Notes under the pieces: generated by a model
Told to the model about the DNA's origin: nothing
The model's input: the letters and a program-made list of their open reading frames with translations, nothing else
Database searches by the model: none
Shown: positions 1 through 21,011 of the stretch, one piece after another
Layout of the letters: each line of letters begins with the position of its first letter
Numbering within the stretch: the first letter of the stretch is position 1
Made by a program: the position numbers and the translations under genes
Virus record (IMG/VR): IMGVR_UViG_2671181056_000013
Coordinates: 1 to 60,485 of that record
Source: a virus
Taxonomy: Duplodnaviria; Heunggongvirae; Uroviricota; Caudoviricetes
DNA: 60,485 nt
Direction: 5' to 3' (one strand)

Positions 1-35
1 AAGCCACTGGAGCACCTCAAAAACACCATCATACA

Positions 36-497
36 CTAAATCAGTAAGTTGGCAGCATCACCGCCACTTTCCAGTTCTTCCACCCAGGCCTGCGGGACAC
101 TGAAATCGAGACGAAAAACCCCGATATCCCAGGTATAGCTCCCACCCTGAACAAGTTGCTCAAATGTTAAACATTGCTTACCGCTGGCGAAGTTATCGCT
201 ATTAATGCCTAACCGCTTGATAACTTCTCTTGATAAACATGTTTCTTGCGGGTTGTCTTTAACAATAATCTCATATTTCCCGCGCCATTGCTTATTGACA
301 TAAATATCGATGTCATACTGCCCCGGTAAGGGTTGATTATCATCAAGACGAATATTTGCAACCTGCTGGTCTTTCATTCCACCTATCATAAAATGGGTAT
401 CAAAGGTTTCTTCAGCTGCATAAGCTTCAATGCCGAGCAATAACGCTACGATTGCTGATGCAAGTGGGGTCATTCTCAACATAGGCAGCTCCTGCAA
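36..497 (-). CDS. yehB: fimbrial usher, N-terminal 153 codons only (signal peptide plus N-terminal domain); ORF stops 35 nt from window edge
   Basis: Translation has a signal peptide and usher N-terminal-domain-like sequence, and sits directly downstream of the chaperone gene as in chaperone-usher operons. A TAG at 36-38 ends it far short of a full usher. Confidence 0.5.
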   Translation of the reverse strand: MQELPMLRMTPLASAIVALLLGIEAYAAEETFDTHFMIGGMKDQQVANIRLDDNQPLPGQYDIDIYVNKQWRGKYEIIVKDNPQETCLSREVIKRLGINSDNFASGKQCLTFEQLVQGGSYTWDIGVFRLDFSVPQAWVEELESGGDAANLLI

Positions 498-1217
498 TTA
501 AATTTTGTCACTAATATAGTTGCCATGGTCATCGATAATGGTCAGATGCCAGTTATTTGCATTATTACTTTTGACATTAACACTCTGACTTTCTAAGGGG
601 GCAATCATAATAGTTTCATAATTGACTTTGACATTATTAGCTTTGACATCCGAGATCGTCACCCAATTAGCTGAGTCATTTTTTATCACCAAACCATTGC
701 CACTGCGATTTACCAGCAATTTTTTAAATGTCGCTTTATTTACCGGAGCAATACCCGCTGGTCGGTAAAACAACTTAATTCTGTTTTGCATCGCAAACTT
801 CAGTGCATTCTTACCTTCTTGCTCTGGACTATTTGGTGGAATATCCAGAACATTCAGATAAAAAATGCTTTCTTTATTAGTGGGCAGTTTATTCGGCATA
901 ATTTTGATTTTTACTTGCTGCCCGGAATTTGCCCCTATTTTTGCCACTGGTGGCGTTAACATGAAAGGAACCTGAATTTTTTCTGGTGGTAATGACGTAT
1001 CGCCATCATCAATCCACGCCTGCAGCAGCGAAGAACGGTTTCCCTGGTTCATCAACTGCACCATCACTTCTTTATTTTCTGCCGGGTAAATAATGCGCGT
1101 CCCGTAGATAACAATTCCGGCATGTGCAGGAAGGACCATAGAAAAAATGAGTAAAGATAATAATCCTTTCATTTTAATGCCTCTTAAATTAAAAGGCCGC
1201 CATGGGATAGCGGCCAT
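498..1217 (-). CDS. yehC: periplasmic fimbrial chaperone (PapD-like)
   Basis: 239 aa with signal peptide and a PapD/FimC-like N-terminal motif (GIVIYGTRIIYP); lies between subunit and usher genes. Confidence 0.85.
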   Translation of the reverse strand: MAAIPWRPFNLRGIKMKGLLSLLIFSMVLPAHAGIVIYGTRIIYPAENKEVMVQLMNQGNRSSLLQAWIDDGDTSLPPEKIQVPFMLTPPVAKIGANSGQQVKIKIMPNKLPTNKESIFYLNVLDIPPNSPEQEGKNALKFAMQNRIKLFYRPAGIAPVNKATFKKLLVNRSGNGLVIKNDSANWVTISDVKANNVKVNYETIMIAPLESQSVNVKSNNANNWHLTIIDDHGNYISDKI

Positions 1218-1251
1218 GTTTATTACCTGGAGAAACTTACAATTTTATTTA

Positions 1252-1794
1252 TTAATCCTGCGCCACACGCATAACCAGAGAAGATAACACATCACCTGAT
1301 TGCACTGAGTTATCTGTCAGTTTCAGGTATTTTGCTTTAAACGGAATAGCATATTGACCTTCCGCTGTTTTATAACTCTCAATGTTAAAAGGTGCAGAAA
1401 CATCCAGGACATCGCTGTTATCACCTAAATAGAGATAGTAACCCACGGTATCGTTGCTACTGGCTATCGCCTTATCGTTACCGGTTATTTTATCGTTGGT
1501 AATCAACGAGAGTTTTACACCAGCAACTTCTTTCGGGCAGCTAATTTTTAACATGCTGCTGGTTACACCGACTGCATCATCATAGGTAGAATATTTAGCT
1601 TTACCTTCAAAGACAGTGGTTGGTACAGTCGGCATATTAATACTTACTGAATCACCACCCGCTTCGAATTTACACGGAGATTCTGCAATATTCCCCTTAA
1701 TAGTTAATGTTCCGGTATCAACGTCTGCAGCAAATACTCCAGCGCTCATAAAAAAAGAAGAAAAGACAGCGGCAGCAATAATTGAACGTTTCAT
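1252..1794 (-). CDS. yehD: fimbrial major subunit
   Basis: 180 aa with signal peptide and fimbrillin-like sequence; first gene of the operon, AT-rich upstream region. Confidence 0.8.
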   Translation of the reverse strand: MKRSIIAAAVFSSFFMSAGVFAADVDTGTLTIKGNIAESPCKFEAGGDSVSINMPTVPTTVFEGKAKYSTYDDAVGVTSSMLKISCPKEVAGVKLSLITNDKITGNDKAIASSNDTVGYYLYLGDNSDVLDVSAPFNIESYKTAEGQYAIPFKAKYLKLTDNSVQSGDVLSSLVMRVAQD

Positions 1795-2035
1795 AATATG
1801 TTCCTTAATAAAATTTTTTTTGGTTGTTAAGAGTCTGTATCTCTTGGAAACAAATTTCTCACATCAAAAAAGTTACCGCAATGTAAACACATTGTTTTAT
1901 TTATTTGAAACAAATTAACCATTGCAATATAAATACAACAAATATTTAAGAGTATTAACTATTTATCGCATCTATCAATTAATGTAGATTTATGTAAATG
2001 GTATTGTTGATATCAATAAAAATCAGGTTGCCAAA

Positions 2036-2317
2036 TTAATCGTAGCGATTTAACACGATTCGACGTTTGCTATCGCTACCTGCAACAACCACTTCTGTCG
2101 TTACACCTTTGACGGGCGAAGAAAACAGATGACGGGTGTCAACATTATACGTTAACTGACCACAATGCGGTTGAGGTTGACCATTAACCATAGCCATACT
2201 GCATGTTGGGGGACTGATCCTGCCATTAATCGCTAATGTGGCAGTCTCTGAAGAGAATGCGGGAGAAGCCAATCCATAGGCAAGAAAAATAATTCCTGAC
2301 AGCCAATACTTATTCAT
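2036..2317 (-). CDS. yehE: small secreted protein, YehE-like
   Basis: 93 aa ORF with N-terminal signal peptide between the fimbrial operon and mrp, matching the E. coli gene order yehD-yehE-mrp-metG. Confidence 0.6.
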   Translation of the reverse strand: MNKYWLSGIIFLAYGLASPAFSSETATLAINGRISPPTCSMAMVNGQPQPHCGQLTYNVDTRHLFSSPVKGVTTEVVVAGSDSKRRIVLNRYD

Positions 2318-2561
2318 TGAAGGTTATGCCTGGATAGAATGAGTGCATAACAAACTATAGCTGTACATCCACTACACAGCCACGAAGGATGATAATGAAG
2401 CATTGCCTGTATGATCAATCGACTTTGTAGAGTTTCGGACGAAGGTCCGCAGAATATTCGCAGTATTAAATAAGTGTTCATTAATGCGGCAAAAACTAAT
2501 ACACCGCATCAATGTAACATCTCTGCGGTGTATGAAGAATAACCAGAATGGTTAATAGGCG

Positions 2562-3671
2562 TTAGACCGCGCGGAAGGAAATCTCGCCTGGAATGACTTC
2601 ACCCTGCCAGTAGAGCTGAGCTGCAACGCGGTCAGCCAGCTGGCGGTAGATAGCGGTAAATTCGCTCTCCGGACGGCTGATAACCGTTGGCGTGCCTTTA
2701 TCGAGATCCTCACGTAAGGAGATGTGTAACGGCATCTGCCCCAGCAGCTGTGTGTGGTATTTTTCAGCCAGTTTCTCTGCACCACCGGTACCGAAAATCG
2801 GTTCATGGTGACCACAGTTACTGCAAATATGCACACTCATGTTCTCGACAATACCAAGCACCGGAACCTCGACTTTCTCGAACATCACAATGCCTTTTTT
2901 CGCATCGATCAAAGCGATGTCCTGCGGGGTGGTGACCACGACTGCACCAGTTACTGGAATGTTTTGCGCCAGCGTCAATTGAATGTCACCGGTGCCTGGC
3001 GGCATATCAAGCACCAGATAGTCGAGATCCGGCCACAAGGTTTCCTGCAACATCTGCATTAACGCCTTGCTCGCCATCGGTCCACGCCACACCATCGCAT
3101 TGTCGTCAGTGACCAGATAACCAATTGAATTGGTTGCCAGGCCATGAGACATAATCGGTGCCATATGGGTACCGTCCGGCGAAGTTGGACGCTGATTTTC
3201 TGCGCCCAGCATGGTGGGAATTGATGGGCCGTAGATATCGGCGTCCAGAATGCCGACTTTCGCCCCTTCCGCCGCCAGTGCCAGCGCCAGGTTTACCGCC
3301 GTGGAGGATTTACCCACGCCGCCTTTACCGGAACTGACCGCAATGATGTTCTTCACACCATTAATACCCGGCTGATTCTTCACGCGTTTTAAGGTGGCGA
3401 TATTGTGCGACAGTTTCCAGTCGATAGCTTTCGCCCCGGTGATACGCAGCAGTTCGGCGCTACATTGCTCTTTTAACTCTTCAAACGCGCTATGCCAGAC
3501 GAATGGCATAACCAGTTCCACATGCAACGTGTCGTCCATCCAGGCGACATGGTGCAACGCGTTCAGCGTGGTGAGGTTATGCTTCAGGGTTGGGTGCTGA
3601 AAATTGGCCAGTGTCCCGGCGACCATTGCGCGCAAGGCTTCTGGTGATTTGGCCTGGGATTGTTCGTTCAT
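2562..3671 (-). CDS. mrp: Fe-S cluster carrier ATPase Mrp/ApbC, copy 1
   Basis: P-loop GKGGVGKS and CxxC motif. Start set at MNEQSQ (369 aa); the ORF track begins 10 codons further upstream. Confidence 0.9.
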   Translation of the reverse strand: MNEQSQAKSPEALRAMVAGTLANFQHPTLKHNLTTLNALHHVAWMDDTLHVELVMPFVWHSAFEELKEQCSAELLRITGAKAIDWKLSHNIATLKRVKNQPGINGVKNIIAVSSGKGGVGKSSTAVNLALALAAEGAKVGILDADIYGPSIPTMLGAENQRPTSPDGTHMAPIMSHGLATNSIGYLVTDDNAMVWRGPMASKALMQMLQETLWPDLDYLVLDMPPGTGDIQLTLAQNIPVTGAVVVTTPQDIALIDAKKGIVMFEKVEVPVLGIVENMSVHICSNCGHHEPIFGTGGAEKLAEKYHTQLLGQMPLHISLREDLDKGTPTVISRPESEFTAIYRQLADRVAAQLYWQGEVIPGEISFRAV

Positions 3672-3802
3672 CCCGACTCCTTTTTTGTATAGATAAACCA
3701 TCAGCTGATAGTTTACCTGAAGAATATAGAGAAGTACTTACTTAACATTTTCCCATTTGGTACTATCTAACCCCTTTTCACTATTAAGAAGTAATGCCTA
3801 CT

Positions 3803-5221
3803 ATGACTCAAGTCGCGAAGAAAATTCTGGTGACGTGCGCACTGCCGTACGCTAACGGCTCAATCCACCTCGGCCATATGCTGGAGCACATCCAGGCTGA
3901 TGTCTGGGTCCGTTACCAGCGAATGCGCGGCCACGAGGTCAACTTCATCTGCGCCGACGATGCCCACGGTACACCGATCATGCTGAAAGCTCAGCAGCTT
4001 GGTATCACCCCGGAGCAGATGATTGGCGAAATGAGTCAGGAGCATCAGACTGATTTCGCAGGCTTTAACATCAGCTATGACAACTATCACTCGACGCACA
4101 GCGAAGAGAACCGCCAGTTGTCAGAACTTATCTACTCTCGCCTGAAAGAGAACGGTTTTATTAAAAACCGCACCATCTCTCAGCTGTACGATCCGGAAAA
4201 AGGCATGTTCCTGCCGGACCGTTTTGTGAAAGGCACCTGCCCGAAATGTAAATCCCCGGATCAATACGGCGATAACTGCGAAGTCTGCGGCGCGACCTAC
4301 AGCCCGACTGAATTGATCGAGCCGAAATCGGTGGTTTCTGGCGCTACGCCGGTAATGCGTGATTCTGAACACTTCTTCTTTGATCTGCCCTCTTTCAGCG
4401 AAATGTTGCAGGCATGGACCCGCAGCGGTGCGTTGCAGGAGCAGGTGGCAAATAAAATGCAGGAGTGGTTTGAATCCGGCCTGCAACAGTGGGATATCTC
4501 CCGCGACGCGCCATACTTTGGTTTTGAAATTCCGAACGCGCCGGGCAAATATTTCTACGTCTGGCTGGACGCACCGATTGGCTACATGGGTTCTTTCAAG
4601 AATCTGTGCGACAAGCGCAGCGACAGCGTAAGCTTCGATGAATACTGGAAGAAAGACTCCACCGCCGAGCTGTACCACTTCATCGGTAAAGATATTGTTT
4701 ACTTCCACAGCCTGTTCTGGCCTGCCATGCTGGAAGGCAGCAACTTCCGCAAGCCGACCAACCTGTTTGTTCATGGCTATGTGACGGTGAACGGCGCAAA
4801 GATGTCCAAGTCTCGCGGCACCTTTATTAAAGCCAGCACCTGGCTGAATCATTTTGACGCTGACAGCCTGCGTTACTACTACACTGCGAAACTCTCTTCG
4901 CGCATTGATGATATCGATCTCAACCTGGAGGATTTCGTTCAGCGTGTGAATGCCGATATCGTGAACAAAGTGGTTAACCTGGCCTCTCGTAATGCGGGCT
5001 TTATCAACAAGCGTTTTGACGGCGTGCTGGCAAGCGAACTGGCTGACCCGCAGTTGTACAAAACCTTCACTGATGCCGCTGAAGTGATTGGTGAAGCGTG
5101 GGAAAGCCGCGAATTTGGTAAAGCAGTGCGCGAAATCATGGCGCTGGCTGATCTGGCTAACCGCTATGTCGAAGTGGCCTTAAACAATTTGTTTTCTACC
5201 TTTTCTTGTTCGAGAAAATAA
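3803..5221 (+). pseudogene. metG: metG 5' portion (about 456 codons) fused in frame to phage-like sequence, ending after 16 unrelated codons
   Basis: Class I aaRS motif HLGH and KMSKS are present. MetG-like sequence stops at 5172/5173 where the full copy continues ...RYVDEQAPW; here it reads ...[19 protein letters not shown]. Confidence 0.8.
5183..5220 (+). promoter_or_regulatory. about 40-bp phage promoter-like element, copy 1 of 3 (AAACAATTTGTTTTCTACCTTTT...GAGAAAATAA)
   Basis: A 23-nt stretch is identical to 12203-12225 and near-identical to 16091-16113; possible -35 TTGTTT and -10 GAAAAT/GATAAT. Confidence 0.4.
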
Positions 5222-5253
5222 CGTTCCTTTGTCTGGTGCTATGTACCGATCAG

Positions 5254-5300
5254 TTGCACTGAGTGAGCTTCTTTCATGTATACTGTGTAAATGAACAGTA
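5254..5300 (+). promoter_or_regulatory. sigma70-like promoter (TTGCAC ... TATACT) overlapped by a LexA/SOS box TACTGTGTAAATGAACAGTA
   Basis: CTGT-N8-ACAG palindrome at 5281-5300, matching the LexA consensus at 16 of 20 positions by my alignment, about 17 nt upstream of the umuD'-like start. Confidence 0.65.
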
Positions 5301-5316
5301 TTGAGGGCAAAACGCT

Positions 5317-5706
5317 ATGGGCTTCCCTTCTCCTGCGGCGGATTATGCTGAGAGCCGTATTTCTCTTGATCAGCAGATAATTAGACATCCTTCAGCGACC
5401 TACTTCATGAGAGCAGCTGATAGTCATCATCGTGAGGGAATATTACAGGGTGCATTGCTGGTGGTTGATTCCTCACTTACCCCGGTTGATGGTTCTCTGC
5501 TTGTATGCGCTCTGGATGGGGAATATCGCGTAAAAAGATACCGGAAGTCTCCACGTCAGCATCTGGAGGATTTAAGAACCGGTAAGAAGGAAGCATTGCC
5601 AAAGGATGACGATGGATGCACGGGCAGCAATGCCGTGTTTGGTGTGATCACTCACATTATCAACGACGCAAGAAGTGGCGAGTTTGATGATTGTCCTGTG
5701 ATGTAG
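5317..5706 (+). CDS. UmuD'-like S24 peptidase-family protein, natively starting at the position equivalent to UmuD Gly25
   Basis: MGFPSPAADY...HPSATYF...VFGVITHII aligns with E. coli UmuD from the Cys24/Gly25 cleavage site onward. Good RBS GAGGG; in-frame TGA at 5302-5304 excludes a longer N-terminus. Confidence 0.8.
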   Translation: MGFPSPAADYAESRISLDQQIIRHPSATYFMRAADSHHREGILQGALLVVDSSLTPVDGSLLVCALDGEYRVKRYRKSPRQHLEDLRTGKKEALPKDDDGCTGSNAVFGVITHIINDARSGEFDDCPVM

Positions 5707-5718
5707 GAGAACTGATTA

Positions 5719-5745
5719 GGCGGTGCAATGCACCGCCTTTTTATC
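5719..5745 (+). terminator. intrinsic terminator (GGCGGTGCA-A-TGCACCGCC plus T-run)
   Basis: Perfect 9-bp stem followed by TTTTT, placed between the convergent umuD'-like gene and mrp copy B. Confidence 0.6.
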
Positions 5746-6844
5746 ACACTGCGCGGAATGCGATTTCGCCAGGTATTACTTCACCTTGCCAATACATTTG
5801 GGCAGCAACGCGATCTGCGAGGTCACGATAAATAGCCGTAAATTCGCTATCTGGACGACTAATAACGGTTGGTGTTCCGTTATCCAGATCTTCACGAAGA
5901 GAGATATGAAGTGGCATTTGGCCTAACAACTGCGTGTTGTATTTCTCGGCCAGTTTCTGTGCTCCACCGGTGCCAAAAATTGGCTCGTGATGACCGCAGT
6001 TACTGCAAATATGCACACTCATGTTTTCAACGATACCCAGTACCGGCACTTCGACTTTTTCGAACATCACAATGCCTTTCTTCGCATCGATCAGCGCGAT
6101 GTCTTGCGGCGTAGTTACCACAACCGCACCAGTTACAGGAATGTTCTGCGCCAGCGTCAATTGAATATCACCAGTGCCCGGTGGCATATCGAGAACGAGA
6201 TAGTCCAGATCAGGCCACAGTGTTTCCTGCAACATCTGCATCAGCGCCTTGCTCGCCATCGGTCCACGCCACACCATTGCATTGTCATCGGTGACCAGAT
6301 AACCAATAGAGTTGGTTGCCAGGCCATGAGACATGATAGGTGCCATGTGAGTACCGTCCGGTGAGGTTGGACGTTGGTTTTCCGCGCCCAGCATGGTTGG
6401 AATTGATGGACCATAGATATCGGCATCCAAAATACCAACTTTCGCACCTTCAGCAGCCAAAGCCAGTGCCAAGTTTACTGCTGTGGAGGATTTACCCACG
6501 CCGCCCTTGCCTGAGCTGACGGCGATAATGTTCTTAACGCCATTAATGCCTGGTTGGTTTTTGACGCGCTTAAGCGTGGCAATGTTGTACGACAGCTTCC
6601 AGTCAATAGCCTTTGCGCCAGTGATACGGAGCAGATCACCACTACATTGCTCTTTCAGGTCTTCAAAAGGCTTATTCCACACGAAAGGCATGATTAGTTC
6701 GACATGCAGTGTGTCATCCATCAACGCAACATGGTGTAACGCTTTAAGCGTAGTCAAGTTGTGTTTCAGGGTTGGGTGCTGAAAATTAGCCAGCGTACCG
6801 GCTACCATTGCTCTCAGGGCATCCGGCGATTTGGACTCGCTCAT
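5744..6844 (-). CDS. mrp: Mrp/ApbC, divergent copy B
   Basis: 366 aa with the same motifs as copy 1, but many synonymous and some non-synonymous differences; its flanking non-coding DNA is unrelated to copy 1. Confidence 0.85.
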   Translation of the reverse strand: MSESKSPDALRAMVAGTLANFQHPTLKHNLTTLKALHHVALMDDTLHVELIMPFVWNKPFEDLKEQCSGDLLRITGAKAIDWKLSYNIATLKRVKNQPGINGVKNIIAVSSGKGGVGKSSTAVNLALALAAEGAKVGILDADIYGPSIPTMLGAENQRPTSPDGTHMAPIMSHGLATNSIGYLVTDDNAMVWRGPMASKALMQMLQETLWPDLDYLVLDMPPGTGDIQLTLAQNIPVTGAVVVTTPQDIALIDAKKGIVMFEKVEVPVLGIVENMSVHICSNCGHHEPIFGTGGAQKLAEKYNTQLLGQMPLHISLREDLDNGTPTVISRPDSEFTAIYRDLADRVAAQMYWQGEVIPGEIAFRAV

Positions 6845-7001
6845 CCCGTCTCCTTTATTTTAATTTGCGCAATTGTCGCCTTGTAGTGTACTCCAGCTAC
6901 GACATTTAATCATTTATGAGAAATGCTGTTATCACATGGCAGACATAAGGCCATTTTGTTACTATCAAGCCCCTTTTCACTACAAAGAAGTAATGCCTAC
7001 T

Positions 7002-8837
7002 ATGACCCAAGTCGCGAAGAAAATTCTGGTGACGTGCGCGCTGCCGTACGCTAACGGCTCAATCCACCTCGGCCATATGCTGGAGCACATCCAGGCTGAT
7101 GTCTGGGTTCGTTACCAGCGAATGCGCGGCCACGAGGTTAATTTCATCTGTGCCGACGATGCCCACGGTACGCCAATCATGCTGAAAGCACAGCAGCTTG
7201 GTATCACACCGGAACAGATGATTGGCGAAATGAGTCAGGAACATCAGACTGATTTCGCAGGCTTTAACATCAGCTATGACAACTATCACTCGACGCACAG
7301 CGAAGAGAACCGTCAGTTGTCCGAGCTTATCTACTCTCGCCTGAAAGAAAACGGTTTTATTAAAAACCGCACCATCTCACAGCTGTACGATCCGGAAAAA
7401 TGCATGTTCCTGCCGGACCGTTTTGTAAAAGGCACCTGCCCGAAATGTAAATCCCCGGATCAATACGGCGATAACTGCGAAGTCTGCGGCGCGACCTACA
7501 GCCCGACTGAACTGATCGAGCCGAAATCGGTGGTTTCTGGCGCTACGCCGGTAATGCGTGATTCTGAACACTTCTTCTTTGATCTGCCCTCTTTCAGCGA
7601 AATGTTGCAGGCATGGACCCGCAGCGGTGCGTTGCAGGAGCAGGTGGCAAATAAAATGCAGGAGTGGTTTGAATCCGGCCTGCAACAGTGGGATATCTCC
7701 CGCGACGCGCCATACTTTGGTTTTGAAATTCCGAACGCGCCGGGCAAATATTTCTACGTCTGGCTGGACGCACCGATTGGCTACATGGGTTCTTTCAAGA
7801 ATCTGTGCGACAAGCGCAGCGACAGCGTAAGCTTCGATGAATACTGGAAGAAAGACTCCACCGCCGAGCTGTACCACTTCATCGGTAAAGATATTGTTTA
7901 CTTCCACAGCCTGTTCTGGCCTGCCATGCTGGAAGGCAGCAACTTCCGCAAGCCGACCAACCTGTTTGTTCATGGCTATGTGACGGTGAACGGCGCAAAG
8001 ATGTCCAAGTCTCGCGGCACCTTTATTAAAGCCAGCACCTGGCTGAATCATTTTGACGCTGACAGCCTGCGTTACTACTACACTGCGAAACTCTCTTCGC
8101 GCATTGATGATATCGATCTCAACCTGGAGGATTTCGTTCAGCGTGTGAATGCCGATATCGTGAACAAAGTGGTTAACCTGGCCTCTCGTAATGCGGGCTT
8201 TATCAACAAGCGTTTTGACGGCGTGCTGGCAAGCGAACTGGCTGACCCGCAGTTGTACAAAACCTTCACTGATGCCGCTGAAGTGATTGGTGAAGCGTGG
8301 GAAAGCCGCGAATTTGGTAAAGCAGTGCGCGAAATCATGGCGCTGGCTGATCTGGCTAACCGCTATGTCGACGAGCAGGCTCCGTGGGTGGTGGCAAAAC
8401 AGGAAGGCCGCGATGCCGACCTGCAGGCAATTTGCTCAATGGGCATAAACCTGTTCCGCGTGCTGATGACTTACCTGAAGCCGGTACTGCCGAAACTGAC
8501 CGAGCGCGCAGAAGCATTCCTCAATACAGAACTGACCTGGGATGGTATCCAGCAACCGCTGCTGGGCCACAAAGTGAATCCGTTCAAAGCGCTGTATAAC
8601 CGCATCGATATGAAGCAGGTTGAAGCACTGGTGGAAGCGTCTAAAGAAGAAGTGAAAGCAGCTGCCGCGCCAGTTACTGGCCCACTGGCAGATGATCCGA
8701 TTCAGGAAACCATCACCTTTGACGACTTCGCAAAAGTTGACCTGCGCGTGGCGCTGATCGAAAACGCAGAGTTTGTTGAAGGTTCTGACAAACTGCTGCG
8801 CCTGATGCGGTGTATGAAGAATAACCAGAATGGTTAA
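7002..8837 (+). CDS. metG: methionyl-tRNA synthetase copy B, truncated after about codon 601 and read through into 10 junction codons
   Basis: Near-identical to the other metG copies except scattered SNPs. Junction at 8805/8806 joins metG to sequence equal to 2524 onward. The ORF-track N-terminal extension (6873-6992) is treated as artefact. Confidence 0.8.
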
Positions 8838-8843
8838 TAGGCG

Positions 8844-9953
8844 TTAGACCGCGCGGAAGGAAATCTCGCCTGGAATGACTTCACCCTGCCAGTAGAGCTG
8901 AGCTGCAACGCGGTCAGCCAGCTGGCGGTAGATAGCGGTAAATTCGCTCTCCGGACGGCTGATAACCGTTGGCGTGCCTTTATCGAGATCCTCACGTAAG
9001 GAGATGTGTAACGGCATCTGCCCCAGCAGCTGTGTGTGGTATTTTTCAGCCAGTTTCTCTGCACCACCGGTACCGAAAATCGGTTCATGGTGACCACAGT
9101 TACTGCAAATATGCACACTCATGTTCTCGACAATACCAAGCACCGGAACCTCGACTTTCTCGAACATCACAATGCCTTTTTTCGCATCGATCAAAGCGAT
9201 GTCCTGCGGGGTGGTGACCACGACTGCACCAGTTACTGGAATGTTTTGCGCCAGCGTCAATTGAATGTCACCGGTGCCTGGCGGCATATCAAGCACCAGA
9301 TAGTCGAGATCCGGCCACAAGGTTTCCTGCAACATCTGCATTAACGCCTTGCTCGCCATCGGTCCACGCCACACCATCGCATTGTCGTCAGTGACCAGAT
9401 AACCAATTGAATTGGTTGCCAGGCCATGAGACATAATCGGTGCCATATGGGTACCGTCCGGCGAAGTTGGACGCTGATTTTCTGCGCCCAGCATGGTGGG
9501 AATTGATGGGCCGTAGATATCGGCGTCCAGAATGCCGACTTTCGCCCCTTCCGCCGCCAGTGCCAGCGCCAGGTTTACCGCCGTGGAGGATTTACCCACG
9601 CCGCCTTTACCGGAACTGACCGCAATGATGTTCTTCACACCATTAATACCCGGCTGATTCTTCACGCGTTTTAAGGTGGCGATATTGTGCGACAGTTTCC
9701 AGTCGATAGCTTTCGCCCCGGTGATACGCAGCAGTTCGGCGCTACATTGCTCTTTTAACTCTTCAAACGCGCTATGCCAGACGAATGGCATAACCAGTTC
9801 CACATGCAACGTGTCGTCCATCCAGGCGACATGGTGCAACGCGTTCAGCGTGGTGAGGTTATGCTTCAGGGTTGGGTGCTGAAAATTGGCCAGTGTCCCG
9901 GCGACCATTGCGCGCAAGGCTTCTGGTGATTTGGCCTGGGATTGTTCGTTCAT
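8844..9953 (-). CDS. mrp: Mrp/ApbC, copy 2 (identical to copy 1)
   Basis: Translation is identical to 2562-3701; the DNA repeat runs from 8806, offset 6282 from copy 1. Confidence 0.9.
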   Translation of the reverse strand: MNEQSQAKSPEALRAMVAGTLANFQHPTLKHNLTTLNALHHVAWMDDTLHVELVMPFVWHSAFEELKEQCSAELLRITGAKAIDWKLSHNIATLKRVKNQPGINGVKNIIAVSSGKGGVGKSSTAVNLALALAAEGAKVGILDADIYGPSIPTMLGAENQRPTSPDGTHMAPIMSHGLATNSIGYLVTDDNAMVWRGPMASKALMQMLQETLWPDLDYLVLDMPPGTGDIQLTLAQNIPVTGAVVVTTPQDIALIDAKKGIVMFEKVEVPVLGIVENMSVHICSNCGHHEPIFGTGGAEKLAEKYHTQLLGQMPLHISLREDLDKGTPTVISRPESEFTAIYRQLADRVAAQLYWQGEVIPGEISFRAV

Positions 9954-10084
9954 CCCGACTCCTTTTTTGTATAGATAAACCATCAGCTGATAGTTTACCT
10001 GAAGAATATAGAGAAGTACTTACTTAACATTTTCCCATTTGGTACTATCTAACCCCTTTTCACTATTAAGAAGTAATGCCTACT

Positions 10085-12118
10085 ATGACTCAAGTCGCGA
10101 AGAAAATTCTGGTGACGTGCGCACTGCCGTACGCTAACGGCTCAATCCACCTCGGCCATATGCTGGAGCACATCCAGGCTGATGTCTGGGTCCGTTACCA
10201 GCGAATGCGCGGCCACGAGGTCAACTTCATCTGCGCCGACGATGCCCACGGTACACCGATCATGCTGAAAGCTCAGCAGCTTGGTATCACCCCGGAGCAG
10301 ATGATTGGCGAAATGAGTCAGGAGCATCAGACTGATTTCGCAGGCTTTAACATCAGCTATGACAACTATCACTCGACGCACAGCGAAGAGAACCGCCAGT
10401 TGTCAGAACTTATCTACTCTCGCCTGAAAGAGAACGGTTTTATTAAAAACCGCACCATCTCTCAGCTGTACGATCCGGAAAAAGGCATGTTCCTGCCGGA
10501 CCGTTTTGTGAAAGGCACCTGCCCGAAATGTAAATCCCCGGATCAATACGGCGATAACTGCGAAGTCTGCGGCGCGACCTACAGCCCGACTGAATTGATC
10601 GAGCCGAAATCGGTGGTTTCTGGCGCTACGCCGGTAATGCGTGATTCTGAACACTTCTTCTTTGATCTGCCCTCTTTCAGCGAAATGTTGCAGGCATGGA
10701 CCCGCAGCGGTGCGTTGCAGGAGCAGGTGGCAAATAAAATGCAGGAGTGGTTTGAATCCGGCCTGCAACAGTGGGATATCTCCCGCGACGCGCCATACTT
10801 TGGTTTTGAAATTCCGAACGCGCCGGGCAAATATTTCTACGTCTGGCTGGACGCACCGATTGGCTACATGGGTTCTTTCAAGAATCTGTGCGACAAGCGC
10901 AGCGACAGCGTAAGCTTCGATGAATACTGGAAGAAAGACTCCACCGCCGAGCTGTACCACTTCATCGGTAAAGATATTGTTTACTTCCACAGCCTGTTCT
11001 GGCCTGCCATGCTGGAAGGCAGCAACTTCCGCAAGCCGACCAACCTGTTTGTTCATGGCTATGTGACGGTGAACGGCGCAAAGATGTCCAAGTCTCGCGG
11101 CACCTTTATTAAAGCCAGCACCTGGCTGAATCATTTTGACGCTGACAGCCTGCGTTACTACTACACTGCGAAACTCTCTTCGCGCATTGATGATATCGAT
11201 CTCAACCTGGAGGATTTCGTTCAGCGTGTGAATGCCGATATCGTGAACAAAGTGGTTAACCTGGCCTCTCGTAATGCGGGCTTTATCAACAAGCGTTTTG
11301 ACGGCGTGCTGACAAGCGAACTGGCTGACCCGCAACTGTACAAAACCTTTACTGATGCCGCTGAAGTGATTGGCGAAGCATGGGAAAGCCGCGAATTTGG
11401 TAAAGCTATCCGTGAAATCATGGCATTGGCTGACCTGGCTAATCGCTATGTCGATGAACAGGCTCCGTGGGTGGTGGCGAAGCAGGAAGGTCGCGATGCA
11501 GATCTGCAGGCGATTTGCTCTATGGGCATTAACCTGTTCCGCGTGCTGATGACGTACCTGAAACCGGTACTGCCGAAACTGACTGAACGTGCAGAAGCAT
11601 TCCTGAATACAGAACTGACCTGGGATGGTATCCAGCAACCGCTTCTGGGCCATAAAGTGAATCCGTTCAAGGCACTGTATAACCGTATCGATATGAAACA
11701 GGTGGAAGCACTGGTGGAAGCATCCAAAGAAGAAGTGAAAGCCACAGCTGCACCGGTAACTGGCCCACTGGCTGACGAACCGATTCAGGAAACCATCACC
11801 TTTGACGACTTCGCCAAAGTTGACCTGCGTGTGGCGCTGATTGAAAACGCGGAGTTTGTCGAAGGTTCTGACAAACTGCTTCGCCTGACGCTGGATCTCG
11901 GTGGTGAAAAGCGTAATGTCTTCTCAGGCATCCGTTCCGCTTATCCAGATCCACAGGCACTGATTGGTCGTCACACCATTATGGTGGCTAACCTGGCACC
12001 ACGTAAAATGCGCTTCGGTATCTCTGAAGGCATGGTGATGGCTGCCGGTCCTGGCGGGAAAGATATCTTCCTGTTAAGCCCGGATGCTGGTGCTAAACCT
12101 GGCCACCAGGTTAAGTAA
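10085..12118 (+). CDS. metG: methionyl-tRNA synthetase, full length (677 aa)
   Basis: Complete ORF including the C-terminal tRNA-binding domain. The 3' third differs at many sites from copies 1 and B. Confidence 0.9.
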
Positions 12119-12140
12119 TTAAACAACCTCTCTTCGCAAT

Positions 12141-12166
12141 GCCCGGCAACACGCCGGGCATTTTCA
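12141..12166 (+). terminator. intrinsic terminator of metG (GCCCGGC-AACAC-GCCGGGC plus T-run)
   Basis: 7-bp GC stem followed by ATTTTC, 23 nt after the metG stop. Confidence 0.7.
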
Positions 12167-12201
12167 TATAGACACAATCCCTCCTGATTTACACAAGCCC
12201 T

Positions 12202-12240
12202 AAAACAATTTGTTTTCTACCTTTTGTTGATTGAGATAAT
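12202..12240 (+). promoter_or_regulatory. about 40-bp phage promoter-like element, copy 2 of 3; apparent left edge of the phage region
   Basis: Same 23-mer as at 5183; sits between the metG terminator and the first phage-like gene. Confidence 0.4.
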
Positions 12241-12279
12241 AAGCCACATAAGAAAACAACTTGTTTTGGAGTAGTTGAA

Positions 12280-12579
12280 ATGTTGAACATTACCCAAGCC
12301 TACCAGGTGGCATTGATCAGTTCATCTCATACATCAGAGGAAGATGCTCGCCGATTCATGATCGCAAGCAATGAGCTGGATTGGGTTTCACAAATTGAGT
12401 ACGGTTGCATTGTCCACGCCGGGTTACAGGACGATGACTGGAAAGATGAGTTGCGTCGATATGGTATATCCGAGGGTGCGATTGCGAACATTCAGAAAGT
12501 ACTTGATGTAGGCTTTAACTCTGTACATTTTGATTGTGGCGCACCGGTCGTTGAAGGGCTTGAGTGCTGGCAATGGTAA
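12280..12579 (+). CDS. hypothetical early protein (99 aa)
   Basis: ORF with GGAG RBS, preceded by the GAAAACAAnTTGTTTTC palindrome. Confidence 0.55.
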   Translation: MLNITQAYQVALISSSHTSEEDARRFMIASNELDWVSQIEYGCIVHAGLQDDDWKDELRRYGISEGAIANIQKVLDVGFNSVHFDCGAPVVEGLECWQW

Positions 12580-12615
12580 TCCGGCAATCGCTTCATACTA
12601 GATAACGGAGAATTT

Positions 12616-12801
12616 ATGCTTAAAGAAGACTCATATCTACTAAAGGCGCTTGAAATGAGTGGCGTTGAACCTACAGTGAAAAACGCTCACGATATCTACC
12701 TTCAGTTTTCGACAGAGCTGAAACAGCTCATAAATAAATATGGAGTGAACGACTCCAGCGTCAAAGCCATGATAGATGATGAATTAGACCATCTCATCTA
12801 A
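12616..12801 (+). CDS. hypothetical small protein (61 aa)
   Basis: ORF with RBS-like GGAGAA upstream. Confidence 0.45.
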   Translation: MLKEDSYLLKALEMSGVEPTVKNAHDIYLQFSTELKQLINKYGVNDSSVKAMIDDELDHLI

Positions 12802-12899
12802 TCAAACCGTTGATAATGGCGGTCACAATTTGATTCTTTTCTATAAGAACCCGTTGATCGCCACTACTACCCTCCCATACCAGCAATCACATCATTAAA

Positions 12900-13700
12900 T
12901 ATCAATAGGTTATGGTTGTTTATACCAATAAGAAAACAACTAAATAACAGATCAACGAAACATCAACGCTTTCTCCCGATTTGGTCTAAAAAATTGACGT
13001 TATCACACATCACTTCTTATACCCGTAATTCTACGCAGCAGATAGCGCCACAGCGTCCAAATTTCACCACAGACGACTCAACACACTACCAACAAAAACA
13101 CACGCTCAAAATCGCTCCCGTTGCGTTACACAACCATATAAACAACTTATTTTCAGGCATAACAAAACAACCAAATAACACATATGCCATTACCCAAAAC
13201 AACCAACCTCTTTATGGCAGGCTACCGAAAAGACCCACCTCTTCTCCCCAGGCTACCGGACAACCAACCTAACTTTCACAGGCAATCCGAAAACATTCAT
13301 ACGCGCGATACCCACGACACGCCATTACCCAAACAGCGAAGAAACACCTGAACCGCTGAAACCCTAACGAAGCCTGTAACCGCAAGGTTTCTCTCAATCC
13401 CAAAAGACACGAAACATAACAATCACGGGAAACGCCATTACCCAATACACGAATAACTACAAAAGCCTTCACACACTCCAGACAAACAACTCAAACACAA
13501 TAACGAAAGCAATCGCCCACCTGCCATTACTCCATACACGGAGAAGAACAATCACCAAAACGACGAGAACACCCCCATAGAAGAACCACCGCAAAACTAA
13601 CGAAACCACATACACCGACAGAGAAAACAACACACCCAATTCACCAACAGAAATAGTCGCCGTATAGAACATTCTGGAAGGAGTGAGCATTAACGCCTAT
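12900..13700. repeat. G-poor, CA-rich non-coding tract with dispersed GCCATTACCCA and CAGGCTACCG...CCCACCT repeats
   Basis: Top strand is almost devoid of G for about 800 bp. Four GCCATTAC(C/T)C copies near 13186, 13321, 13433, 13523; two CAGGCTACCG copies at 13217-13273. The only ORF translates to low-complexity sequence. Confidence 0.6.
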
Positions 13701-13854
13701 AGAGAGGTTGAGACAGATAAAACACAACATGTATAGCGAAGAAGCCAGGTATGTATAAGTGGAGAGGGAAGGAGGGGGGTCGCCTCCTTTTTCGTATTTA
13801 TTCAACTCCTGATTTTATCCCCCGTAACACCCCCTACGGTCAGCCTTCGGTCCA

Positions 13855-13992
13855 TACAGGGAAAAGGTTGCATCCAGCTACAGAAACGGCTGGGTTGCCT
13901 TCGGGGGAACGGCTGGGGATTTTCAGGGAAACGGTCGAGTTGCCTGTGTGGATTTCGGGAAAAGGCTCGATGCCGGTTCTGGAACGGCGGCG
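13855..13992. repeat. iteron-like direct repeats (GGGAAAMGG family, about 6 copies at 21-32 bp spacing), set 1
   Basis: CAGGGAAAAGG, CAGAAACGGC, CGGGGGAACGGC, CAGGGAAACGG, TCGGGAAAAGGC, CTGGAACGGCGG in series; no convincing ORF. Confidence 0.55.
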
Positions 13993-14370
13993 TACCGGTA
14001 TAGCGAGAGAGAGAGTTGCAGCTACCCACCTGTAATGTGCGGGAAGAAGAGAGGCGCTCACGTGCAGGCTGACTTGCTTACCGCTGGATTCCCTCTGAAT
14101 GCCAGATACAGCGTAATTGTGCCAGACAGCCAGCGGGTCACAATCGATTTCAGTAGGTTTTCGGGGAGAGGATTATTCTACCCACCAGCCCCGCGGCGCG
14201 CGTAGAGCAGAATATCGTAAATACTGGCTCTCGTGTCGTTCCCGGATATTCACTGCCCAGCCTGGCTTTCCCGACATAAAATCCTTTTTCGCCTTTATCT
14301 TATTGCGATAATAACACCAACAAGTAAACAGCATATTTAGACGTTATAGAAACGAAGTGAGGATGAAGAG

Positions 14371-14589
14371 ATGATTAAGATGCCTGTGACGGTTGAGGTG
14401 TGGGGCGTGGATTCCCTGGCTGAGTGTCTGGATGCAGTGGGGCCGGAGTTGTACCGCAAGTTGTGGTCGTTCGTCCCGGCAGAAGGGGAATCGCCCAAAG
14501 GGAAGGATATCTGGCACCTGCTGAGTGAAGATGAAAAGCGGGAGCTGGTGGGCGCGGTACACAGCGAGTTCCCGGACGACCAAGATTAA
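14371..14589 (+). CDS. hypothetical acidic small protein (72 aa)
   Basis: ORF with GAGGA RBS, followed by a terminator. Confidence 0.5.
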   Translation: MIKMPVTVEVWGVDSLAECLDAVGPELYRKLWSFVPAEGESPKGKDIWHLLSEDEKRELVGAVHSEFPDDQD

Positions 14590-14595
14590 GAGTGA

Positions 14596-14618
14596 GGCCA
14601 CCAGCACGGTGGCTTTTG
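14596..14618 (+). terminator. intrinsic terminator (GCCACC-AGCAC-GGTGGC plus TTTT)
   Basis: Hairpin plus T-run immediately after the stop at 14589. Confidence 0.6.
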
Positions 14619-14727
14619 TCGCTATTAACCTCGGGGCAGCGCAGCACCGTAACGATATACTTTGTGGCCGTTTTCTTACTGGTATTGTTTACGTAATTCA
14701 GAAAACAACATGTTTAAGGATTGCTTT

Positions 14728-15057
14728 ATGTTTGCAAATATCGACATCAACCAAATTAAGAAATTGACTCAAAAAGAGTTTGACCAGTTTTATGAGCTGG
14801 AAGGTTGGTCTTCCACTCTGATTAATTCAAGATGGGTGCTGGAGCTGATGACTCGTGATGACGCACCTGCTTTGATGATTTGCGACATGGGTGAAGATGC
14901 TGACTTTATGGATATGAGCGAATTTTGTGTGGACACATACAACCGCAGCCAGAAGTACTACTTCACATGCGATAGCGAAAATGACGTGATTTCTAAGGTC
15001 TATCTTCACCTCGTCCAGCATTGGGACGTTCAGGACTTCCTTGCGATATTCGCGTAA
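14728..15057 (+). CDS. hypothetical early protein (about 110 aa)
   Basis: Start chosen at the ATG after an AAGGA RBS, downstream of the palindromic motif at 14701; the ORF track begins at 14662. Confidence 0.55.
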   Translation: MFANIDINQIKKLTQKEFDQFYELEGWSSTLINSRWVLELMTRDDAPALMICDMGEDADFMDMSEFCVDTYNRSQKYYFTCDSENDVISKVYLHLVQHWDVQDFLAIFA

Positions 15058-15211
15058 GCCCAACCAAAGCCAGCATTGCTGGCTTAACTTCATCTGTAGC
15101 CGCAGGGAAGAACCTGCATATCGCTCATGCGCCTGATCAATATGCTTTGTAGCCGTTTTCTTACTGGTATTATTTACGCCATTGAGAAAACAAGTTGTTT
15201 ACGGAGTTGTG

Positions 15212-15523
15212 ATGAAAAAATCATTGGTTCTTGGTCTGGACAAAGACCAGAAGAGAAAAGAGAAGCCTGCACTGGTTGCTCAATTAACTTTGCTGGACAT
15301 CGTTGCCAATGGAACCTCTATTCGTCTGTTCCGTGAAACAGCGGTGTCTTTCGATAAAAACACCTTTACTCGTTATGTAATGAATGTTCGTCGCCAGCGT
15401 GGAAAAGGCTGGATGGCATTTCAAAGAATGTGGCCGGAACATCAGCTCGAACTGGCTTTGATGGAAGTTAACCGCGTGGCCCAGCAAGAGATTCAGAGAG
15501 CATCAGTGATGGCAATAGCCTGA
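15212..15523 (+). CDS. hypothetical early protein (about 104 aa)
   Basis: ATG after a GGAG RBS; the 55-bp upstream block is shared with the 14660-14715 region. Confidence 0.55.
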   Translation: MKKSLVLGLDKDQKRKEKPALVAQLTLLDIVANGTSIRLFRETAVSFDKNTFTRYVMNVRRQRGKGWMAFQRMWPEHQLELALMEVNRVAQQEIQRASVMAIA

Positions 15524-15559
15524 TAATGTGCAAGTGGTAATTAGTCGACAGTACGACAG

Positions 15560-15585
15560 CCCCGCCATCCTTACGGGGTTTTTTG
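15560..15585 (+). terminator. intrinsic terminator (CCCCG...CGGGG plus T6)
   Basis: GC hairpin followed by TTTTTT. Confidence 0.7.
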
Positions 15586-15636
15586 TATTGTAAGTACATA
15601 CCTATGTCTATAAAATAGAAAAATAACCAAGACACT

Positions 15637-16044
15637 ATGGAGAGTGATATGAGCGTTAAACGAGAAAACCTGACAGTTGATGTCTACTATGCTTCAGAAA
15701 GCGCCGAAGGTAAGAATGTAGCTAAAATCACCGTCGTTACGTACAACACCGAAACTGGAACTGAAGTTCAGGCAAGTACTATTGTGCGTAAAGGAGATAC
15801 ATCAGGCGGGGAATATGAGGCGCAATATCAGTCCATTTTTGATGCAACGGACCCGTTGTTGTTGAAAATTGAAAGTTACTTCCGTAAGGTGAATAAAGAG
15901 GTGTTTGAAACCATGATGAATATGGTTAACACCGTATTCGCTTCCAGTCTGAACACTAACACTACCTGGATTGGTCAGTATGGTCTGCGCATTACCTCCG
16001 GCATTCCTGCTGACACCTTAATCCCTGAAAGCGTATTCGCTTAA
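15637..16044 (+). CDS. hypothetical early protein (135 aa)
   Basis: ORF with its own upstream AT-rich region and downstream terminator. Confidence 0.6.
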   Translation: MESDMSVKRENLTVDVYYASESAEGKNVAKITVVTYNTETGTEVQASTIVRKGDTSGGEYEAQYQSIFDATDPLLLKIESYFRKVNKEVFETMMNMVNTVFASSLNTNTTWIGQYGLRITSGIPADTLIPESVFA

Positions 16045-16056
16045 TCCTCTTTGAAT

Positions 16057-16080
16057 GGCGCGTAAACCGCGCCATTTTCT
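16057..16080 (+). terminator. intrinsic terminator (GGCGCG-TAAAC-CGCGCC plus T-run)
   Basis: Hairpin and ATTTTCT directly after the stop. Confidence 0.65.
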
Positions 16081-16090
16081 TATGCCCGAT

Positions 16091-16130
16091 AACAATTTGT
16101 TTTCTGCCTTATCTGATTTGTGAAAATGCT
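16091..16130 (+). promoter_or_regulatory. about 40-bp phage promoter-like element, copy 3 of 3
   Basis: AACAATTTGTTTTCTGCCTTATCTGATTTGTGAAAAT is closely similar to the elements at 5183 and 12203. Confidence 0.4.
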
Positions 16131-16162
16131 TTCACTGAAAGCAACTTGATAAGGAAACCATC

Positions 16163-16537
16163 ATGGGACTTGATATCTACATTGAGACGCAACCAAAAAA
16201 CGATCTGAATAACGATGCATCCAGAAAGAAGGTTGCTTACTTCCGTAAGTTCAATGCTCTCTTTGGGTGGATGGAACGCAACGTAGGTGAAGTCAAAAAT
16301 TGTGAGCTTTTAGAATTAACGATGAATGACATTTGTGCTCTGAAAGCTCATTTGATGCACATGAACGAAAGTAACTGCGAAGAGTACTTACCTACCTGTG
16401 AAGGTTTTTTCTTCGGCAGTCAGGAGTACGATGAAGGGTACTGGCATGACGTGGGGGAGTTGAAAAAACTTGTGGAAGAGCTGATTAAGAACCACGACTT
16501 TCACAATAACAGACTGACCTTCTGCGCCTGGTGGTAA
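16163..16537 (+). CDS. hypothetical early protein (124 aa, Cys-rich)
   Basis: ORF with AAGGAAA RBS. Confidence 0.6.
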   Translation: MGLDIYIETQPKNDLNNDASRKKVAYFRKFNALFGWMERNVGEVKNCELLELTMNDICALKAHLMHMNESNCEEYLPTCEGFFFGSQEYDEGYWHDVGELKKLVEELIKNHDFHNNRLTFCAWW

Positions 16538-16539
16538 AT

Positions 16540-16683
16540 ATGGGCGATTTCAAGAAACGCCTGAAGGAAAGAGCCGAGATAGTCAGAAAGCAAAACGCCT
16601 CTTCTGTCATCAGATACGCAAGGCAGTTTAGTCGCAACAACAAATCAGTTGAGGAAAAGATCCTTAGCGTAATCGGTCGATAA
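16540..16683 (+). CDS. hypothetical small basic protein (47 aa), possibly translationally coupled
   Basis: ATG 3 nt after the preceding stop; followed by hairpin AAGGCCACCACTGCTGGTGGCCTT. Not in the ORF track (below its size cut-off). Confidence 0.35.
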   Translation: MGDFKKRLKERAEIVRKQNASSVIRYARQFSRNNKSVEEKILSVIGR

Positions 16684-16732
16684 TTATTAAGGCCACCACT
16701 GCTGGTGGCCTTAAATGACCATCCTGTTTCCC

Positions 16733-16805
16733 GCAGGCTAAAAACACCAACCTCTTACCTCCAGGCAACCGACAAACCCACCTGTTCCCGTCCGGCTACC
16801 GCAAC
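16733..16805. repeat. second cluster of CAGGCTACCG...CCCACCT-family repeats
   Basis: GCAGGCTAAAAACACCAACCTC, CCAGGCAACCGACAAACCCACCTG and CCGGCTACCGCAAC resemble the repeats at 13217-13273. Confidence 0.45.
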
Positions 16806-16887
16806 TTTCCACTTTGACGCCTTATTCGTACAACGATAATTAACGCCAACAAGAAAACAATTTGTTATTTACGATAAGGAATTAATC

Positions 16888-17370
16888 ATGAATTTTATCG
16901 CTACTGTAAACGCACCCGCACATGGCAATATCGCTGTAACGTTCTCTGACATTGAAAAACGAGTACTTGGTGCATGGCGCGACAATGAGACGGTAGAACT
17001 GTCAGCACAAGAAAAATGCATTATTGCACGCGACATCATTGGCAATCGTCGTTACTCGCGGGTATTTGAGAAAGCGTATGTGGTAAATTCTGGATTCGGA
17101 ACGTTCGTCTTTCCGGTGCGCTCCGGGCGATTCTGCCAGTCCAAGCTGATTGAGTTCGCTACGCAGATTTCTGTCTGGATTAAAACTCAATCGTCGTTCA
17201 AATTTTCCGACGATGAAGCAGTATCGCAGGGGATGCGGATCGCCAACAATGCAATTAAATGCAAAAACATTACGTATACCGCTGGCGTTGATACATGGAA
17301 ACTGTTTTGCGCTAACTTTATGCTGAATGTATACGCAAGCAACCGCATCCACATCCTTGATGGCGTGTAA
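16888..17370 (+). CDS. hypothetical early protein (160 aa)
   Basis: ORF with AAGGA RBS, preceded by the palindromic motif at 16853. Confidence 0.6.
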   Translation: MNFIATVNAPAHGNIAVTFSDIEKRVLGAWRDNETVELSAQEKCIIARDIIGNRRYSRVFEKAYVVNSGFGTFVFPVRSGRFCQSKLIEFATQISVWIKTQSSFKFSDDEAVSQGMRIANNAIKCKNITYTAGVDTWKLFCANFMLNVYASNRIHILDGV

Positions 17371-17379
17371 CTGAGAAGA

Positions 17380-17402
17380 GGGCCAGTAACGGCCCTTTCT
17401 CT
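17380..17402 (+). terminator. intrinsic terminator (GGGCC-AGTAAC-GGCCC plus T-run)
   Basis: Hairpin and TTTCTCT 10 nt after the stop. Confidence 0.65.
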
Positions 17403-17417
17403 ATAGCCACCAGATGC

Positions 17418-17962: not shown

Positions 17963-17997
17963 AGCGCCCACTATGGGCGCTATTGTTTTTATTTTTC
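17963..17997 (+). terminator. GC hairpin AGCGCCCA-CTA-TGGGCGCT plus T-run; inverted partner copy at 18458-18478
   Basis: One of several GCGC-rich hairpins in the AT-rich 17760-18000 tract; the same 19-mer recurs as its reverse complement 495 bp away. Confidence 0.55.
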
Positions 17998-18216: not shown

Positions 18217-18236
18217 GATTAAGCTCCTTAAAAAAA

Positions 18237-21009: not shown

Positions 21010-21011
21010 AA

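Follow-up and report, generated by a model that had tools for sequence, protein, structure and literature searches.

Three apbC-metG units in a Shigella sonnei draft contig draw on the chromosome and on a phage-plasmid

The subject of this report is a 60,485-nucleotide stretch of DNA (IMG/VR record IMGVR_UViG_2671181056_000013, positions 1 to 60,485, hereafter referred to as the window) in which apbC (mrp), encoding a P-loop NTPase, and metG, encoding methionyl-tRNA synthetase (MetRS), occur side by side three times. The window is the whole of contig CXFJ01000012.1 from the repeat-limited Shigella sonnei draft assembly GCA_001255095.1, and the deposited protein CSS55254.1 [Shigella sonnei], returned by an exact-protein look-up, is the product of its third metG copy. 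The original prediction described a tandem triplication of one mrp-metG unit. The repeats are indeed direct and head-to-tail, but the units derive from two replicons, are unequal in length, and are connected by unlike junctions. That account also missed that the left flank is chromosome whereas everything rightward is phage-plasmid. With a probability of about 0.5, the three-copy layout represents an assembly path rather than a faithful picture of one DNA molecule.

Positions 2524-5029 are identical base for base to 8806-11311, as first claimed, giving a repeat of 2506 bp at an offset of 6282 that is bounded by loss of identity at 2523/8805 (left) and 5030/11312 (right). The first repeat copy (2524..5029) contains the chromosomal apbC and nucleotides 1-1227 of metG, and shows zero to one mismatch per 100 bp against chromosomal references. 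The second copy (8806..11311) likewise includes the chromosomal allele of apbC. Two further exact repeats are embedded in the region, namely 4314-5172 with 7513-8371 (859 bp) and 7513-8228 with 10596-11311 (716 bp). The chromosomal-allele apbC, which encodes a protein of 369 residues on the minus strand, is encountered first at 2562-3671 (PF10609, E=4e-102) and again, in identical form, at 8844-9953. Between them, also on the minus strand, lies a single copy of the plasmid allele, apbC_P, at 5744-6844 (366 residues; PF10609, E=2e-102). This is the divergent middle mrp of the original prediction, and it is 82.7% identical to the flanking 369-residue copies. Both alleles contain a full-length NUBPL-type P-loop NTPase domain according to Pfam, in keeping with their assignment as ApbC/Mrp iron-sulfur carriers.

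All three metG copies are read from the plus strand, and only one is complete. Copy 1 (3803-5221) encodes MetG residues 1-456 followed by a 16-residue tail; it breaks at 5172/5173 and retains only the catalytic domain, PF09334. Copy B (7002-8837) encodes residues 1-601 and a 10-residue tail. It breaks off at 8805/8806, where it joins the chromosomal base that lies downstream of the apbC stop codon by 38 bp, and it contains the catalytic and anticodon-binding domains without the C-terminal tRNA_bind domain, PF01588. Copy 3 (10085-12118) is full length at 677 residues, with the class I catalytic (PF09334, E=1e-165), anticodon-binding (PF19303), and C-terminal tRNA-binding (PF01588) domains expected of MetG. 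Because a C-terminally truncated, monomeric form of E. coli MetRS of approximately 547-551 residues is active, the product of copy B could be functional and is probably still catalytically competent; that of copy 1 could not be functional.

Alleles were called by aligning the three copies to chromosomal references, which define allele C, and to the plasmid, which defines allele P1. Between the metG genes of chromosome and plasmid there are 115 differences in 2034 nucleotides (94.3% identity). At the protein level the plasmid MetG departs from both chromosomal references by G134C, A410T, V442I, A554T, and D565E, and also at position 438, which is polymorphic among the chromosomal references themselves. 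The single-nucleotide polymorphism (SNP) pattern described earlier for metG proved to be exact: copy 1 carries one allele, and copies B and 3 each switch once. The alleles are laid out in clean blocks, free of scattered mismatches. The block containing copy 1 (2524-5172) is allele C throughout. It is followed by the phage-plasmid module (5174-7512), consisting of an operator-like motif, humD, apbC_P, and nucleotides 1-511 of metG, all of which is P1 with no mismatch to plasmid NZ_CP045933.1. Copy B remains P1 to metG nucleotide 511, switches within a 163-bp run of identity (7513-7675), and is then C through 8805 (nucleotide 1804). The block containing copy 3 is C over 8806-11278 (metG to nucleotide 1194), switches within a 33-bp run (11279-11311), and is P1 from there onward. 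The longest runs of identity between the two metG alleles are 163 bp (nucleotides 512-674) and 131 bp (nucleotides 997-1127). Copy B switches in the longest run, and copy 3 in one of 33 bp. Note that Ser273, within the chromosomal-allele block, is encoded by all three copies (4619-4621, 7818-7820, and 10901-10903), and that the corresponding residue is a glycine in L003 and in P1; possibly, the serine is a chromosomal variant confined to S. sonnei.

The origin of the right part of the window is clear. Positions 10035-60455 align in one piece, at 99.9% identity, to the complete circular S. sonnei plasmid pAUSMDU00010534_01 (NZ_CP045933.1, 108,107 bp). Of the 44 differences, 42 fall within 10037-11278, leaving two over the remaining 49 kb (99.996% identity). 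The backbone (11312..60455), with its DUF5983 gene at 12280-12579 at the start and a primase gene at the end, is collinear with NZ_CP045933.1 from 76230 to 27085. The plasmid annotation includes tail, capsid, portal, terminase, ParB, dnaE, primase, and helicase genes, as well as an ATPase and metallophosphoesterase pair, a DNA ligase, and only one humD-apbC-metG module. On the basis of these phage structural and ParB/replication genes, the plasmid part of the window is classified by its sequence as a pWPMR2-like phage-plasmid of the SSU5 supergroup. The humD gene (5317-5706, plus strand), identified from the same annotation, occurs once in the window. A preprint places the element, under the name pWPMR2, in the SSU5 supergroup and gives a frequency of 18% for SSU5-group elements among 3,428 S. 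sonnei genomes (bioRxiv 10.1101/2025.09.12.675607). The auxiliary metG on such phage-plasmids has been tied to multidrug-resistant S. sonnei and to persister formation (Tam et al., medRxiv 10.1101/2024.10.27.24316207, as cited in PMC12452169).

The chromosomal portion of the window extends from 63 to 5172 (yehB'-yehCDE-apbC-metG) and is 99.2-99.4% identical to E. coli chromosomes; the phage-plasmid portions are 5174-7512 and 11312-60455. The flank to the left of the repeats (63..2523, minus strand) was defined by its identity to annotated E. coli chromosomes and by a contig gene table (L008). It contains a yehB' fragment, yehC (498-1172), yehD (1252-1794), and yehE (2036-2317), all on the minus strand. 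The contig is terminated on both sides by insertion sequence (IS) overhangs of 62 and 30 bp. The first (1..62) is the terminal 62 bp of IS1A, an exact match to sequence beside annotated IS1A transposase genes in L003 and L004, and the second (60456..60485) matches the annotated IS2 end in L021 at 29 of 30 bases. IS elements at both ends are the pattern expected of a repeat-limited draft assembly, and for such a contig the order and copy number of the mrp-metG units are not established. Indeed, given exact repeats of 2506, 859, and 716 bp, neither the order nor the multiplicity of the units in a short-read contig can be trusted. What is secure in its content is a chromosomal metG and an auxiliary metG carried by a phage-plasmid.

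The region contains two junctions. At the first, J1 (5172..5174), metG nucleotide 1370 is followed by one orphan A (5173) and then by plasmid sequence lying just upstream of humD. At the second, J2 (8805..8806), metG nucleotide 1804 abuts the chromosomal base downstream of apbC bluntly. On its plasmid side, J1 starts exactly where a 3' hairpin arm does, in TTAAGGCCAC-TAGTT-GTGGCCTTAA, with a calculated dG of -10.7 kcal/mol (z -6.1). The right side of J2 likewise coincides with the opening base of a 3' hairpin arm, in ATACACCGCA...TGCGGTGTAT (dG of -10.0 kcal/mol, z -5.8). In the parental sequences the stems on these acceptor sides are 10 bp each. Neither junction was found in 5,426 complete E. 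coli genomes, in the GTDB species representatives, or in IMG/VR, and J1 was not found in the JGI metagenomes. The two fusion proteins were also unmatched in the exact-protein look-up, a weak result in that the contig itself, with both genes, was likewise unreturned. A restriction-site or cloning origin was considered and rejected: the end of the J1 donor resembles SalI after fill-in (GTCGA), no site accounts for the remaining three ends, and the resemblance is taken as a coincidence.

According to the favored explanation, the isolate holds two paralogous apbC-metG modules, one on the chromosome beside yehE and the other on the pWPMR2-like phage-plasmid of the SSU5 family. The contig threads through both of them, with two passes over the chromosomal allele and a single pass over the plasmid module before it leaves along the plasmid, and the changes of allele fall in stretches identical between the paralogs. 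J1, J2, and the 33-bp switch would probably be present in the reads, pointing to real recombination between the paralogs, and the assembler would have walked through them. The analysis shows the identity of the parts, their block structure, the recurrence of chimeric contigs, and the absence of the arrangement from the finished genomes searched; the layout as an assembly path and the presence of J1 and J2 in the reads are inferred. The same k-mer graph, as derived from the exact repeats, has at least two Eulerian orders, and the k-mer content of the contig also fits mixtures of molecules.

Public short-read assemblies with this plasmid family are often chimeric, with a chromosomal arm joined to the plasmid, or are broken in metG (L009, L010, L013, L018, L019, and L020). 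The S. sonnei draft contig L010 corresponds to the window minus a 6282-bp block, at 99.94% identity, and L009 is laid out in the same simple way. In both, the change from C to P1 falls within the 131-bp run, and the plasmid backbones of the two differ by 2.4%. Near the switch of copy 3 the window differs from them at four sites (11212, 11227, 11269, and 11278). By arithmetic from its coordinates, the length of L009 (114,003 bp) is about what a chromosomal arm and a single plasmid circle of approximately 109 kb would add up to. The mirror image is seen in L013, where plasmid sequence leads through a P-to-C hybrid metG to the beginning of the flank downstream on the chromosome, and L019 ends with a P-to-C switch like that of copy B. 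The plasmid contigs of approximately 108 kb behind L018 and L020 stop inside metG, at or within long runs of identity.

Finished sequences present a different picture. Continuity from chromosome to plasmid was found in none of the 5,426 complete E. coli genomes, using a synthetic left-junction query at a coverage of at least 80% (complete Shigella chromosomes lay outside this search). No complete plasmid carries the chromosomal patch in metG, the best match being pure P1 at 99.3% identity to the patch allele. In PLSDB, three complete S. sonnei records were found; all are free circular plasmids whose metG is purely P1. A repeat-limited draft contig, long exact repeats, and the same chimeras in other assemblies are together what an assembly artefact would be expected to display. 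The original prediction had offered such an artefact as an alternative, and with good reason, although J1, J2, and the 33-bp switch are not accounted for by path choice.

Those three joints count against a pure assembly path, for not every joint is explainable by shared sequence. Neither J1 nor J2 shows microhomology or any other sequence shared between its two sides, and novel, homology-free junctions cannot be created by a graph walk alone. Positions at the first base of a 3' hairpin arm account for approximately 6e-4 of the bases in the window, and thus finding two of two junction acceptors at such positions is not a chance coincidence; it points to an in vivo process as the easier explanation. 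Both junctions, moreover, connect parts of one 10-kb locus, an argument against random library chimeras, which were rejected as their source on this ground. The copy 3 switch, lying within only 33 bp of identity, would need supporting reads in an assembler working with longer reads, and suggests a real, possibly very short, gene-conversion tract. No standard pipeline step is known to us that would enter a 2.5-kb unit in a contig twice without some evidence. Bubble-popping consensus was also tried as the source of the common C block and was rejected, for single-SNP bubbles at metG nucleotides 39 and 511 keep both alleles.

It is possible, although we regard it as distinctly less probable than an assembly path, that the phage-plasmid and the chromosome truly recombined through the host-derived apbC-metG cargo, with the plasmid integrated or fused at metG. 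Exchange of allele tracts, together with end joining initiated at hairpins, would then have built the full-length hybrid metG, the truncated metG (1-601), and a dead fragment. In hairpins, SbcCD cuts at the loop's 5' side, and the plasmid-annotated ATPase and metallophosphoesterase pair is one we take to be SbcCD-like. Hairpin cleavage followed by end joining is a candidate source of J1 and J2.

In its strictest form this idea takes the contig as literally right, the phage-plasmid being covalently joined to the chromosome at metG, and in that form we consider it rather unlikely. RecA-dependent repair of a double-strand gap would have produced copy 3 (C-to-P1) and copy B (P1-to-C), with the interval converted to C. 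Two end-joinings at cleaved hairpins would have inserted a 6282-bp segment, apbC_C-metG'(1-456)-humD-apbC_P-metG'(1-601), between yehE and the hybrid; integration of a 6282-bp circle via the 2.5-kb homology would be equivalent. Copies B and 3 do look like what a single ends-in recombination would leave as its right and left products, with the C conversion tract falling between positions 10759 and 11278. Both novel junctions are blunt and have a hairpin arm at their start, the plasmid annotation supplies the SbcCD-like pair and a DNA ligase, the 33-bp switch argues for real reads, and the arrangement would be viable in that a full-length metG is kept. For a simple Campbell integrate, however, the hybrids are in the wrong order, the right-end product (P-to-C copy B) lying upstream of the left-end product (C-to-P copy 3). 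The switches do not coincide either (nucleotides 512-674 versus 1195-1227), and the far end of the plasmid is outside the contig. At least three events would be needed. The insert is missing from the related isolates represented by L009 and L010, J1 and J2 were found nowhere else that was searched, integration of this plasmid family is absent from the finished genomes searched, and the free, circular, pure P1 plasmids of the three complete S. sonnei records speak against it as well.

Somewhat more doubtful still is the suggestion that J1, J2, and the 33-bp switch are real but stand in an order other than that of the contig, or that the junctions exist in a minority of cells. An alternative Eulerian path would read yehE-[apbC_C-metG_C(1-601)]-J2-[apbC_C-metG_C(1-456)]-J1-humD-apbC_P-metG_P1, the last of these with a short chromosomal gene-conversion patch, and would then continue into the plasmid. 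It implies a 3083-bp tandem duplication on the chromosome and one illegitimate joint between chromosome and plasmid. The k-mer content of this order equals that of the contig, and J2 is flanked by the chromosomal allele on both sides in the manner of a plain tandem-duplication joint. The minimal patch could be as small as four SNPs (metG nucleotides 1128-1194), exactly those that distinguish the window from L009 and L010. Against this order, the C patch occurs in no complete plasmid, the joint between chromosome and plasmid would still be unexplained, and neither junction has been independently observed.

The view first put forward, an amplification of the chromosomal mrp-metG in which an allele brought in by transformation or transduction took the place of one copy, accords with the direct, head-to-tail repeats but is very improbable, for the units measure 3199 and 3083 bp, J1 and J2 are unlike where amplification would reuse a single junction, two replicons of origin are involved, and the "imported" unit brings with it humD, contiguous in origin with the 108-kb phage-plasmid that fills the rest of the contig. 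What stands of that earlier notion of duplication plus recombination between resident and imported alleles is that recombination or threading has brought two alleles together; the divergent unit belongs, as the humD-apbC-metG module, to a phage-plasmid that continues for a further 49 kb.

Comparison with known systems places the window close to several of them. It shares with the pWPMR2-type phage-plasmids of S. sonnei and E. coli the same module, the same host species, and the 49 kb of near-identity to pAUSMDU00010534_01. It differs from them in that the plasmid is written as continuous with the chromosome, extra chromosomal-allele copies flank the module, and two unmatched junctions are present. 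As in Campbell-type co-integrates such as Hfr and F-prime, apbC-metG homology exists on both replicons, hybrid genes switch in runs of identity, and a chromosomal flank leads into plasmid; the inverted order of the hybrids, their unlike switch points, the two non-homologous joints, and the absence from the finished genomes searched set the window apart. Repeat-induced chimeric or expanded short-read contigs likewise have IS ends, repeats longer than the reads, switches in the longest shared runs, and recurrence in unrelated assemblies, whereas blunt joints at hairpin arms and a 33-bp switch are not expected from path choice alone. Finally, RecA-independent duplication or illegitimate recombination at hairpins is characterized by homology-free, head-to-tail joints with acceptors exactly at the boundary of loop and 3' arm. 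Here, by contrast, the stems are only 10 bp and one joint links two replicons.

A phage-plasmid-borne auxiliary metG in S. sonnei has already been published; the linkage of chromosome and plasmid and the two junctions would be new, and come from one draft contig. Because the metG copies are 94% identical and share identity runs of 163 bp and 131 bp, chimerism at this gene is systematic in short-read assemblies and in SNP calls, with consequences for signals in genome-wide association studies, for the typing of plasmids, and for any claim that integration has occurred. Should reads confirm J1, J2, and the 33-bp switch, this isolate would be direct evidence of host-derived cargo mediating recombination between plasmid and chromosome, a process undocumented in the finished genomes searched. 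Captured housekeeping genes would then serve as a landing pad that lets a normally extrachromosomal phage-plasmid integrate, and would make a gene linked to antibiotic persistence vary in copy number and in allele.

The humD-apbC-metG cargo occurs once per element in L001, L002, L021, and L011-L017, and related records in the phage collection include Escherichia phages Cyrano and PhiR41_1. A metG query matches 208 plasmids in PLSDB, mostly non-mobilizable E. coli plasmids of approximately 108-112 kb, and in the assembly collection 2,582 blocks are indexed for the humD protein. The cargo genes have diverged unequally from those of the host, with apbC at 82.7% and metG at 94.3% identity (L001 6571-9862; window 5744-6844 and 7002-8837). 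This suggests either different origins or repeated homogenization of metG by recombination with host copies. In the plasmid alleles of the E. coli type (L002 and L021), many positions have the chromosomal state relative to P1.

Both ends of the window lie in interrupted genes. The fimbrial usher gene yehB is broken by the IS1A end (1-62), and this is also where L009 and L010, likewise from S. sonnei, terminate. At the right end, the plasmid DNA primase gene is cut by IS2 68 bp before its stop codon (plasmid position 27085 in the coding sequence 27019-28134 of NZ_CP045933.1), such that the primase of the phage-plasmid in this isolate may be slightly truncated.

A palindromic motif, AAAACAAnTTGTTTT, recurs in the phage-plasmid part, with 15 matches against 0.23 expected, typically just upstream of small genes. 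Sites are located at 5182-5195, 12203-12216, 12254-12267, 15187-15200, 16090-16103, 16855-16868, 26174-26213, 54649-54662, and 57885-57899. The first of these lies 8 bp past J1 and upstream of humD. From its form and placement, the motif looks like a putative operator of a plasmid-encoded repressor. The segment 12800-14100 is gene-poor and has an extreme strand skew, the GC skew reaching -0.49 and the AT skew +0.39 at 13001-13500. Within it, GCCATTACCCAA occurs three times, at 13186, 13321, and 13434, in an arrangement that resembles iterons or a partition site.

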